Assembly: GCF_011745625.1 (NCBI RefSeq)
Contig: NW_027191466.1
Span: 248,001 to 312,000, forward strand
Direction: 5' to 3'
DNA: 64,000 bases
Source: Cladosporium halotolerans
Lineage: Eukaryota
In this document: positions 15,212-20,130 of the stretch, piece by piece
How the letters are laid out: each line of letters begins with the position of its first letter
How positions within the stretch are numbered: position 1 is the stretch's first letter
The notes under the pieces: model-generated
Seen by the model: the letters and a program-made list of their open reading frames with translations, nothing else
Told to the model about the DNA's origin: nothing
Database searches by the model: none
Program-made: the position numbers and the translations under genes

Positions 15212-16397
15212 CTACTGTCGCCATGCGATAACGTCGACGGGCGTGTCCCAGAGCTTCAGCGCCTGCTCGCGCTCGAGCGTCTCGCCGCTGGTGGGTGGGA
15301 GACGCCAGATTGTGATTCCAACGCCGCTCATCTTCAGACTCGTCACGAGCGGGCCGAGAGTCGCTCTCTTGACTGTAAATCCACGCTTCTTCAGCTCCAC
15401 AGTTGCCAGTTCGGCGAATCGTGCCAGGACTTCGTCTGATGTGCTTCCGAGCGAGTTCAGCAGGAGGACCACCTCGTTGTCGGTCGTCGGGTTGGTGGAT
15501 CTCGAGAACGGAACGAAAGCCCTGTCACTATCTGAAACATCGAGCAGCAGGTCGAGCATCTGCGATGTGAGGGCCTCAGGAGTCGGAATCGGAGAAATCT
15601 GCCTCAGACCAGGCTCGCCATGCGCGCCCATTCCAAGCTCAATCGTAGCAGGCGGCAGCACCTGAAGGTCTGTCAATGTAGCATTGGGCAGAGCGACCCT
15701 GCGACATCAATCAGCAACCGCGCCATCTTTACCCTTGCGTAGAAGTCACTCACCGATCAAAAGCAACCCCAATCGTCCCCACATTCGCACAAACATACTC
15801 CATCACCTCCGCGACCCTCTCCAGCCCCTCCCCGGCCGCCGCAAGCGCACAAGCGCTCTTCAAGGCAACCAAATGCCCGCTAAGGCCCCTCCTCCCCACC
15901 TTCCCGCCCTTCTTCCTCCCCACCGCCACATCGTCGCCCACCGGCTTGAAATGCACCTTGTACCCGGCCGCCTGCGCGCGCGTGATCGCCAGCCCCGCAT
16001 TGAGGATGTCGCCCGTGTAGTTGCCGCAGACGACGAGCGTGCCCTTGCTGCGCTGCCCGCCGTGCGGCTGGCAGAGCTTGATGGCGTGGAAGATCTGGGC
16101 GGCGGTCGGGGACGCGAAGACGTTGCCGGAGACGTAGGCGGAGAGGTAGTTGGCGCCGACGAAGCCGCCGAACATGGGCTCGTGGCCGCCGCCGGCGAAG
16201 CCGATGGTCGTGACGTGGTCTTGCGCGAAGGTGGAGAGGTCGCTGCGGTAGATGGTTTTGAACTCGGTGTTGTAGGTTAGGTTGGGGTTGAGGTGGGTTA
16301 GGCCGGTGAGGGCGTCGTTGATGGCGTCGGAGGGGGAGTTGATGAAGTGGAAGGTTTCTTTGGCTGGAGGAGCTTTGGTTTGGGTTGCGGTGGCCAT
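15212..16397 (-). CDS. Stand-alone dihydroxyacetone-kinase K (Dak1) domain protein lacking DhaL/Dak2, 376 aa; exons 16397-15754, 15698-15212
   Basis: GGGHEP, GNVFASP, NYTGD, VGDDVAVGRKKGGKVGRRGLSG, ELGMGAHGEPG, LLNSLGS, TSLKMSGVGIT; one GTGAGT..CAG intron; stop right after the domain end. Confidence 0.9.
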
Positions 16398-17082
16398 GGT
16401 GGCGGTTTGGGGTTGGGGTGTGAGGTTGGCAATGGATTATGAAGCTGATTGAGAAAGCAATGGCAGTAGTAATCAAAAGGACAGTCGAAGGAGAAGCAGT
16501 GCTCAGAGCCTGAAGGAAAAGAGGAACAAAAGAGATATACCTACCTTACCGACCTCGAACCTTGGCCCTGTTGACGGCCTACTACAAACAGTGATGCGCG
16601 TGCTGCGGGGTATCCGGACGCGCTCTGCTGGATGGATGTCCGGAAGACGAGCTTCGTAGGCCGACAGCCAGCAGTGAAAGGCGAAAGAGGGTCTGGAAGA
16701 GGTGTGGAGACGTAGATCGCGATTCCCAAAGAGGAAATCCGATGGCACCGCGTCGCGAGAACCATCGGCTTGCGCTGGCGACGCACGTGAGGCTGCATCA
16801 ATCGTCCTATGAATAGTCCTTAGGACTTGTCTAGACCATATTCTGCGCCAAGGGCCGTAGTCGTCGTGGTCATTATCAGCTGGTGCTCTGCATAGGTTGT
16901 ACTTGAAAATGCATTTTCATTGCGAACTTTTGGGCAGTTGACCTGCATGCGAAAAACATTGACGCGCTTGCGCAGCAAAATCTGAACAAAATCAAAATGC
17001 TACTGCGGATATCAAGCTCGCTCAAATGACAAAAACCAGCCACCGCCTGAGAACAAAATCGTGAAACGTCCCCCGACACCCC

Positions 17083-19094
17083 TCACGACTTGCTCTCCTC
17101 CTGCTTCCCGTGGATCCGCTCCCACTCAGCCGCATCAGCAGCATCATCGAGCTCGTTAGCCGTAAGCTCCGGTGTCTCCTCATCCTCGATCTCCTCAGGA
17201 AGGATCAGATTGAGGATCAAGGACACGAAAGCAGTGACGGCGAAACCCGTCTCAAGCACGAGCTCGATGGCGTTGAAAAAACCGGTCAAGCCGCCGTTGT
17301 TGCCGGAGTAAGTGAAGACGTAGCTGTGTGATGTCAGTGAGTCTGAGCCCTCTAGCTGTGTCAGTGGAGATGCTGGTCAACGAACCTAAACCAAGTCGGC
17401 ACCATCGTAGCGCCAAAGCCCAACGCCAGCGCCGCCGTGAGCACGAACCGATTGCGCCTCGTAAACGGCATCGTCGCAATGATCCTAATTCCCGACGCGA
17501 CGACCGCGGCAAACAAGAAAGTCGTCATGCCGCCCAGCACAGCCGACGGGATCGCGACGAGCGCCGCGGCGAACTTCGCGAAAATCCCCATGACCAGCAG
17601 CCAGAAGCAGGCGGCGTAGCCGGCCTTGCGGTTGGCGCAGCGCGTAAGTGCGATCACGCCGTTGTTCTGCGCGAAGACGGACATGGGCGTGATGGTGCAG
17701 AGGCCCGCGATGAAGCCGCCGATGCCGTCGGCCAGCACGCCGCCTTGGATGCGGGAGTCGAAGAGGGGGCCGTCGACTTGGAGGCGGGAGACGTCGCAGG
17801 TGGCGGTTACGTCGCCGATGCTGTGAATGGGATGTTAGTATGGTGGGCTGTGTAGGATGGCTTGGGGTGGGCTCTGGGGATGGTCGGATTCCATGATCTC
17901 TGTCATCGACAAAGCGGACGGACGGTGTGAACGGGCAAATTGACATACTATCACGCAGTTAGCATCTTTCCAAGCCTCGAAGACATTCAGAAGAGTACTC
18001 ACCCATTCCATAGCAAGCACGATATAAACCGCTAACAACGGCAACACCAGCGGCCCATACAGACTCAGCGGGAACGTATGCACCCAGATGAAACTCGCGA
18101 CGGGCGCCGCATCAATCCCCGAACGATCGAAATACCCACACGCCGCGGCAACGATACAACCAACAAGCAGACCTACAACAACAGCCGTGCTCTTCATGAT
18201 CGGCGAGCCGAAGCGCTCGCACAGGATGATCGTGACGAAGACGAGGAAGCCGAGCCCGATGAACTCCGCGCTTCCCCAGGGCAGGGGCCGGGGAGCGTTG
18301 ATGTTGGGGCAGAGGGCGAAGAGGCCGCTCTCAGGTCTGCCTTTGCAGTCGTTCGAGCCGCCGGCCCAGTTCGCGAAGCCGGTTCCGATGAGCTTGACGC
18401 CGATGAGGAGGACGGTGGGGCCCGTGACGAGGGGAGGGAAGATGCGCTTGAGGAGCTTGGGCGGGGTGAACGACATGAGGATTTCGAGCAAGGCGCAGAT
18501 GCATTGAGTGCCGAGGATGGCGCCGTAGCCCTTGGGGCAGGGCAGGGCGTCGCCGTTGGCGTCAGACGGGCAATAGCCGTTGGCGTACATTTGGCCAAGG
18601 GCGCCGGTGGCGACGGGAATGGTGGCGAAGGAGGTGCCGACGACGGAGATCAGGCCAGTGCCTAGATAGTAAGGCGTGCGGTAGATGTGCAGGCGAGTGA
18701 TTTGCACGATGGAGAGGATGGCGCTGACGATGAGGGAGGTGCTGACTAGGTAGGCCTGCATTTCGCCGGTGAGGTTGGCGGCGGAAGAGAGGATGATTGG
18801 AGGCGTGATTATGCCTGCCAGCATTGCAAGGGAGTGCTGGAATCCCAAGAGAAGGGCGAGGAGTACGGGCATACTTTGGTGGAGTCCAAAGAATGGCGCT
18901 GCCCGGCGTTCCTTCTTGATGAATGGAAGGTTGGGCTTGAAGAGGAACGCATAGTCGTAGTTTCCAATGAGGCCATCCTTTGTGGTGAACTTCCGTACTC
19001 CGAGGCGAAGTTTGTCACCAAAAGATAACTTTGGTGTGGTGTCCGGTCCTATGCGATCCGGAGAGTCGTCTTTGACGTCGTGCGTGGAAGACAT
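17083..19094 (-). CDS. Uric acid/xanthine permease (NAT/NCS2 family, UapA/UapC-like), 588 aa; exons 19094-18004, 17820-17386, 17323-17083
   Basis: LGFQHSLAMLAG, VVGTSF, MECIGDVTATCDVS, NAT signature SVFAQNNGVIALTRCANR; the first intervening sequence is a stwintron (see findings). Confidence 0.95.
17821..18003 (-). other. [D1,2] spliceosomal twin intron (stwintron): internal intron 18002-17948 (55 nt) inside the donor of a 128-nt external intron
   Basis: Minus strand reads ATG GAA TG | G [GTGAGT...GCTAAC tgcgtga TAG] TATGT...TACTAAC atcccattca CAG | C ATC GGC GAC; two-step excision restores M-E-C-I-G-D. Confidence 0.88.
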
Positions 19095-19518
19095 GGTTCC
19101 AATATTGTTCAAGCGGTAATTCAAGTGCTTTCAGGTAGTCCAATGGCGGATGTTCAATGTTGCAAACAAATCTCCAATGTCGGCCTCTAGTTAAAGACCA
19201 GGTCCACTCTCCAATCGTGAGGCTGGTTGTATTGCCACCGCATGCGAAATCGCTTCAGAAGCAGATGCTACGAGCGCACCAGCAAAATAGCACACGAAGC
19301 GATGTTGACAATGAAAAGCCTGCCCCGGTGACTCGCTTTTTGCAAGGTGGTCAGCGGAAATGGTTCAGATGCCCTGAGGTTGACGCGAGGATCGACGCTG
19401 GGTATGGCGAGGCCAATGCTGCGTTCGAGCCCTGGTCGGGATGTGTAGCGAGGAGAATCCTGGTAACAATTTTGAAGTCGCGTGAGAAGGCGGGCAAGGC
19501 CAGAAATATAGCAGCGAG

Positions 19519-20130
19519 AGATAGAAAGCTTCTTGATCGCGTGCAGAAGAAGTCTGGGACCGAGATCAACGGCGACGGCCTGATATCATTATATAGAAAA
19601 GCAAAACCACACCTCGCCACGCGAGAAAACGACATCTACCCCGCGAGAGCAGATCAGATCAATCTAGAGTTTGTCCCCTCGCCTACTTGCAGACGTCCAT
19701 ATCTGGAGTGCAGACAGCGATATCTCCAGGTCGCTGGCAGGAGTTCGCCGACGCAGCGATGGGCCAGCGATAACGGGGCTCGGCGCATCCAGTCGGAAGG
19801 CGTAGCGGGCAGAGATAAAGCGACTGGACTCGAGGTGACTGGAGGTGGAGAGGGCTCGATCGACGCCCGGAGCGGGCGGCAGTTGTGAGGGTGCGGGAGG
19901 GACTGTGCGCCGAGCCCGGGAGGCTTGTGCTGATAAGTACGCAATGTGTTAGGGCTCAGGCGCCGCTCGGCTATCAATGCTGTTTGACAGGAGGGTGTTA
20001 GTCGTGGGATCTAGATGCGTTTGCTTCTTGTGTGCCGGGCCAGACGTCCCTGTTGCATTTGCATGTGAGCCTCATGTTCCGTTATCCGGAAAGGGTGGGT
20101 TGAACCTCACGTGCGTGTTGCGACTGATAG
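19519..20130. promoter_or_regulatory. Cluster of HGATAR (GATA-factor/AreA-type) sites upstream of the purine permease
   Basis: AGATAG 19519, CGATAA 19768, AGATAA 19813, TGATAA 19931, CTATCA 19971, TGATAG 20125; TATATAA-like element on the minus strand near 19590. Confidence 0.5.

Follow-up and report, generated by a model that had tools for sequence, protein, structure and literature searches.

The minus strand of the window (the whole 64-kb stretch of DNA that was analysed) carries a permease gene of three exons with a product of 588 aa. Exon 1 (19094-18004) opens with an ATG at 19094-19092 and closes with ...ATG GAA TG, the final TG being the first two bases of a Cys codon; its 3' end reads GCTTGCTATGGAATG at 18004. 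Exon 2 (17820-17386) starts with CATCGGCGACGTAAC at 17820, read in frame as C ATC GGC GAC, holds the segments IGDVTATCDVS and QNNGVIALTR, and has RNA joints at both ends. It is followed by an ordinary second intron of 62 nt (17385-17324; GTTCGT...CAG) and by exon 3 (17323-17083), which ends in the stop codon TGA at 17085-17083. The donor of this second intron, GTTCGT, is of a less common type, and its splicing is confirmed by a joint from 17323 to 17386 in the RNA contigs of two sequencing runs, X15 and X8. Downstream of the permease, two adjacent minus-strand ORFs (15750-16436 and 15212-15706) look like exons of one neighbouring gene (15212-16436).

When 18004 is joined directly to 17820, the translation reads ...LAMECIGDVTATCDVS... 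and the frame stays open through QNNGVIALTR, which we take to be the NAT signature motif. Exon 1 aligns with the structure of Aspergillus nidulans UapA, 5i6c (5i6c_A; UapA residues 8-356), with an E value of 2e-154, and its last Glu aligns to UapA E356. On the Pfam profile PF00860, exon 1 covers positions 4-247 and exon 2 positions 249-387, leaving exactly one position between them. The 588-aa product is 87% identical to the 598-aa homologue P0007 over 587 residues with 0 gaps. Its closest named homologues are Dothideomycete purine permeases (~75-81% identity), and homologues from metagenomes and transcripts reach 86-99% identity. These similarities identify the gene as a NAT/NCS2 permease of the UapA/UapC uric acid/xanthine type. 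The first-pass annotation had proposed that TG and C join into a Cys codon that keeps MECIGD in frame, a reading that agrees both with the gapless alignment to P0007 and with the wider family: of 199 homologues retrieved, the segment is [MCT]E-x-[IM]GD in 189, where x is A (180), C (5), or T (4), and never W. Three of the 199 read MEWV, and the other 7 are incomplete, show T in place of I, or have an intron at another position.

Between exons 1 and 2 lies a nested element of 183 nt (18003-17821, minus strand), which directly follows the exon end ...ATGGAATG at 18004. Its first letter is a lone G at 18003, the G1 of a split external donor, which is absent from mature RNA (183 nt are skipped, not 182). 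A complete internal intron of 55 nt (18002-17948) comes next, with donor GTGAGT at 18002-17997, branch site GCTAAC at 17963-17958, and acceptor TAG at 17950-17948, the spacing from GCTAAC to TAG being 7 nt. The remaining 127 nt of the external intron (17947-17821) begin with TATGT at 17947-17943 and contain TACTAAC at 17840-17834 and CAG at 17823-17821, with 10 nt between ACTAAC and CAG. Re-checked against the window, the coordinates and motifs of the first-pass annotation were all correct, as was its central claim that removal of the inner intron builds a canonical external donor, GTATGT, out of G 18003 and TATGT. The base after the last CAG is C (17820), and the G needed by the alternative [D1,2]/[A2,3] class is thus absent, which closes the [A2,3] route as had been claimed.

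This architecture was compared with the published definition of [D1,2] spliceosomal twin introns (stwintrons) by using the search pattern of Fekete and co-workers (PMC9024468 section 2.1) as model A, in which the internal intron has at least 42 nt and a branch site DYTRAY 4-20 nt before an HAG acceptor (PMC9024468). The element shows hybrid motif 1 (a G directly 5' of a complete internal donor; 18003 followed by GTGAGT), an internal intron of 55 nt (GCTAAC, 7 nt, TAG), and hybrid motif 3 (the internal acceptor followed by U2-RWGY; TAG/TATGT, where a slash here and below marks a splice site). Model A found one match on both strands of the 64-kb window, at 18003 and of length 183, while 52 of 60 block-shuffled windows held none (mean 0.13 matches), and there was no match in 72 related loci with a total of 289088 bases. 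A blastn-short search of the 64-kb window for sister copies of the 183 nt gave only chance matches of 10-15 nt. The 183 nt fold no better than shuffled versions (z -0.04; an equal or better fold in 98 of 200 shuffles), and Rfam returned no match at E up to 1 for the region 16500-19600.

Evidence for the mature junction comes from four aligned sequencing runs, X15 (an RNA-Seq library), X8 (library type unrecorded), X17 (RNA), and X2 (DNA), all of them in the form of assembled contigs, which drop rare forms. A joint from 17820 to 18004 that skips 183 nt is present in a 103-nt contig of X15, which differs from the window at 3 of 103 letters, and in a 539-nt contig of X8, which differs at 8 of 533; the two runs belong to separate studies. 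Both contigs read the mature junction forecast from the genomic sequence, ATGGAATG/CATCGGC, and on the gene strand the skipped 183 nt end in GG..AG, with one letter ambiguous. The X8 contig contains neither intron, and because it lacks the 62-nt intron it derives from spliced RNA. At 97-98.5% identity to the window (1.5-3% different), the RNA contigs come from very close relatives and not demonstrably from the same strain, and the mature junction alone is the same for GG+182 and GGG+183. The listed X17 and X2 contigs do not cross the joint, and the X2 pieces omit 17954-18020; one X2 DNA contig spans 17766-17953, including the junction between the internal acceptor and TATGT, with 0 differences. 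In published work an exon-fusion read, plus an intermediate read where available, is accepted as validation of a stwintron, and the RNA is sometimes taken from a closely related strain (PMC12403724). The X15 and X8 contigs provide such an exon fusion, with 183 nt precisely removed, in RNA of close relatives.

We then listed exhaustively the single deletions, one-step introns, and two-step routes that yield the observed RNA. Only two single deletions do so, with ends GG..AG or GG..CA. The RNA reveals the final junction only, and one alternative is a one-step removal of 183 nt through an unusual GG (or shifted-register) 5' end, with the nested signals being incidental. However, GG..AG is not among the donor classes in the fungal intron statistics on which stwintron studies rely, the donor being 5'-GU and occasionally GC (PMC5587772), and interior-only shuffles recreate a complete internal intron followed by TATGT in just 0.3-0.4% of cases (61 of 20000 mononucleotide and 19 of 5000 dinucleotide shuffles). 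We consider this explanation very unlikely. A one-step splice that keeps the frame, named at the outset as the observation that would speak against nesting, was also looked for: there are 11 in-frame GT/GC..AG introns, none of which yields the observed RNA, with nine deleting the conserved LAME segment and two keeping ~30 intron-encoded residues.

Under the bare GT/GC..AG rule, three two-step routes lead to the observed RNA, and in only one of them, that of 55+128 nt, do the donors, branch sites, and acceptors all conform to consensus. The remaining two would first remove 131 or 142 nt from GTGAGT and then 52 or 41 nt with a GC donor. Although both give the observed mature RNA under this rule, they depend on second donors (GCCCAC or GCCATC) without the conserved G5 and on first acceptors GAG and AAG, and the 41-nt intron falls below the 42-nt minimum for fungal U2 introns (PMC9024468), so that we rate them as the least probable of all the alternatives weighed here. 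The first-pass annotation had further held that a single 182-nt splice loses the frame and the QNNG motif and that outer-first splicing would destroy the inner acceptor. On computation, the 182-nt splice gives MEWHRRRNRH..., a +1 frameshift with a stop after 475 residues that misses QNNG, and removal of GTATGT..CAG first gives MEWVSTLL...HRRRN..., again a frameshift that misses QNNG.

The frameshifted 182-nt product is also what would be expected of a pseudogene or mis-spliced gene, in which 1 nt was inserted into a plain phase-2 donor, the usual GTGAGT..CAG splice of 182 nt was thrown out of frame, and the RNA derives from relatives without the insertion. The RNA contigs do differ from the window by the 1.5-3% given above, and [D1,2] stwintrons have been documented to be missplice-prone on occasion, in one step through the distal sites (PMC9024468, PMC12403724). 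Against this, four sequences from three lineages, whose proteins diverge by as much as 11%, have the G/GT arrangement in common; the exons show no damage and align gaplessly with relatives at 87% identity; and every one of the nested signals conforms to consensus. We find a broken gene, too, very hard to credit.

The first-pass annotation had also raised the possibility that the extra G is an error, in which case the third G would be a homopolymer artefact of assembly and the locus would hold one ordinary 182-nt intron. Such a reading draws on the identity of the mature junction for GG+182 and GGG+183, and on the gap at 17954-18020 in the listed X2 DNA pieces, which leaves the GGG run uncovered. 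With GG only, MEW would be followed in these frames by a stop or by a different residue, yet three proteins from other assemblies read MEW-V. P0001 (99% identical in exon 1) reads MEWVSTLLNVFEAWKDANCVIV (MEWVSTLL...), the same as the window through the internal intron with all 18 read-through codons identical, and has a diverged outer intron with several substitutions and a net length 2 nt shorter. P0002 and P0004 (89% identical, from other samples) read MEWVC and may share the nested structure, to judge from their 4-15 read-through codons. Moreover, none of the four runs shows an insertion or deletion relative to the window. As three further assemblies also contain the extra G, it is no artefact of assembly, and we would assign such an error a lower probability still than a GG-ended intron or a broken gene. 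All three proteins are read-through products of ORF callers, and they illustrate that callers blind to nesting report truncated or chimeric proteins at such loci. They are the evidence obtained for the first-pass expectation that standard gene predictors may mis-model the locus.

With the architecture, the exact mature junction in the RNA of close relatives, a single consensus route, and the extra G in independent assemblies all observed, we regard the element as very probably a genuine phase-2 [D1,2] stwintron in a Dothideomycete UapA/UapC-type permease gene. From the architecture we infer which cut comes first and that there is an intermediate. In the proposed mechanism, the 55-nt U2 intron GTGAGT..GCTAAC..TAG would interrupt the donor of a second intron after its first base, and the spliceosome, acting by intron definition, would cut it out in a first step. 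G 18003 would then meet TATGT to form the new donor GTATGT, and the predicted intermediate without the 55 nt would read GAATGG/TATGTCAAT. In a second step, the new 128-nt intron would be cut out by way of TACTAAC and CAG. The net removal of 183 nt would join TG and C into the Cys codon of the protein ...LAMECIGDVTAT..., with the protein-level junction one residue past the Glu aligned to UapA E356. Two-step splicing would then be the sole way for the gene to make a working permease, as one-step models shift the frame before QNNG.

To place the stwintron among its relatives, 72 metagenome loci were fetched, 66 of which include the stwintron site. The first-pass annotation had asked whether the nested arrangement is conserved among orthologues. 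G/GT is read in P0001, P0002, and P0004. None of the 66 loci has an intron at the site (0/66 in the x codon), and 62 of them run through the whole segment without interruption. In L001 and L008, the nearest relatives without an intron, the sequence is ATG GAG TGT ATC GGC.

Several neighbouring positions are occupied by other introns. In L002 (3565-3650) and L003, which have the same sequence and match exon 1 at 89% identity, a canonical 70-nt intron in phase 2 lies 12 nt upstream of where the stwintron is (CT/GTAAGT...GACTGAC...CTAG/G GCG ATG GAG). The transcript-derived P0003 equals L002/L003 in exon 1 and reads LAMEAIGD, confirming that their -12 intron is spliced. At the same -12 place, L004 (2076-2129; 88% identical) has a 54-nt insert, GTAAGT...GCTGAC...TTGG, without an AG acceptor, which is in frame and without stops (VSEYSTSVLLRNMLTTPW). 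This insert may represent an exonised intron, an intron whose acceptor is dead, or an error of sequencing. The read-through protein P0006 (...LAVFIVL/VCIT-stop) implies a GTNTGY donor right after the Leu codon, in phase 0; the phase-2 intron of L002/L003 lies just 1 nt away, and discordant introns with such a spacing are the subject of the stwintron-mediated intron-shift model (PMC5587772). Farther from the window in sequence, L016 (1805-1867; P0170; 69% identical) has a 61-nt intron in the Gly codon of I-G-D, ATCG/GTAGGA...TTTCTAG/GC GAC, two codons downstream of the stwintron site; a few codons upstream of that site, additional lineage-specific introns occur in L064 and L067. The read-throughs P0012 and P0014 lose homology just before or within SVFA-QNNG (...SVFA/SVSLTPQ... 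and ...TPMS/SKSPTD...), which suggests a putative intron adjoining the NAT signature motif that would be absent from the window gene.

Comparison of these introns in sequence gave a local score of 25 for the internal intron against the 54-nt insert of L004, versus 14.8 +/- 2.5 for shuffled sequences (3 of 2000 shuffles reach it), and for the whole element against the L002 intron a score that 97 of 2000 shuffles reach. As shared splice signals inflate such scores and five comparisons were made, we treat intron homology as only a weak lead.

A tree was determined from 30 rows comprising the window, P0001-P0013 (all matches of at least 86% identity), L001-L008, L019, and seven more distant proteins. 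A clade of 23 rows has support of 100/98, and the four MEW-V rows fall in three lineages that form its base without a resolved order. A group of 19 rows (support 91/90) holds the intronless and -12 intron states. Because the base of the 23-row clade is poorly split, the tree fits either gain in one lineage or loss in the sister group. Among close relatives this region is met in four states: without an intron, with a canonical phase-2 intron 12 nt upstream, with an implied phase-0 version of that intron 1 nt off, and with the [D1,2] stwintron. We tentatively speculate, while thinking it rather doubtful, that in one Dothideomycete clade the 15 bases for L-A-M-E-C, which belong to transmembrane segment 8, form a hot spot at which introns have turned over recently, the stwintron having been either gained as a unit at an empty site or precisely lost in the sister clade. 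If this were true, the relatives would form a natural series for testing stwintron origin and intron shift. Relatives with an empty site and neighbouring discordant introns are in any case useful for work on intron gain, loss, and shift.

As to novelty, no stwintron in a uric acid/xanthine (UapA/UapC-type) gene was found in the main texts of three studies (PMC5639578, PMC9024468, PMC12403724), and the matches listed for the supplements of two of them (PMC9024468, PMC12403724) include AzgA and NCS1 cases but no xanthine or uric acid permease. Within this scope, the suggestion that such an element was unreported in a NAT/uap gene stands for the UapA/UapC type, but it is weakened by HCOc378A, a stwintron already listed in an AzgA permease with the same PF00860 domain (PMC9024468). 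Similarly, the class had been called described but rare. Described it is, but the novelty is less than implied, as [D1,2] is the commonest stwintron type, with more than 100 in the genome of Hypoxylon sp. CO27-5 (PMC9024468). The present stwintron is of a kind already described and reveals no new mechanism; what it adds is a [D1,2] case from a Dothideomycete lineage, within a transporter family that has been studied in depth. Its importance lies chiefly in gene annotation and in research on the turnover of introns.

Work on [D1,2] stwintrons of Pezizomycotina is that of Flipphi, Fekete, Karaffa, Scazzocchio and co-workers. Uniquely occurring examples are found in a DHA1 antiporter gene of A. 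nidulans (PMC5587772) and, numbering 81, in Hypoxylon sp. CO27-5 (PMC9024468). The present element resembles these unique [D1,2] stwintrons in having a G before a full internal donor and an internal acceptor followed by T-RWGY, in its predicted removal by two consecutive U2 splices, and in the +1 frameshift that one-step use of the distal site produces. At 183 nt, of which the internal intron makes up 55 and the external one 128, it falls inside the range of 114-313 nt given in print. It differs in its host lineage (Dothideomycete) and gene (UapA/UapC-type NAT), and in that its intermediate is a prediction.

Among the Dothideomycetes is also Helminthosporium solani. Stwintrons known from this class include that of H. 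solani (PMC5587772) and a [D2,3] stwintron in bioDA of Botryosphaeriales. Alternatively spliced [D1,2]/[A2,3] stwintrons have been described (Helminthosporium solani; Trichoderma reesei DHA1 gene) (PMC5587772), and the [D1,2] half of these elements has the same layout as the one reported here. Their [A2,3] path, however, uses a G after the last acceptor, where the present gene has C 17820.

Within the same protein family, the closest counterpart is HCOc378A, a sister [D1,2] stwintron in an AzgA-family nucleobase permease (pfam00860) of Hypoxylon sp. CO27-5 (PMC9024468 table S1; also PMC12403724 table S1), and stwintrons in NCS1-type permeases are listed in a table of PMC12403724. HCOc378A shares with the present element its [D1,2] type and PF00860 host gene, and its internal donor reads ggtgagt. 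In contrast, it belongs to the AzgA subfamily, lies in phase one rather than two, measures 205 nt, and is part of a propagating family of similar sequences in Xylariales. The propagating sister stwintrons of Xylariales have near-terminal repeats (PMC12403724). Unlike them, the present 183 nt have no fold above chance, no NTIRE-10, and no pronounced symmetry.

A further parallel is the recursive (ratchet-point) splicing of long animal introns, which proceeds in consecutive steps, the first of which has to take place before a further 5' splice site can be used. The splicing predicted here would likewise be stepwise, with a 5' splice site usable only after step 1. In recursive splicing, however, no signal is interrupted by another intron (PMC5587772), whereas in the present permease gene the external donor is itself split, between G1 and U2.
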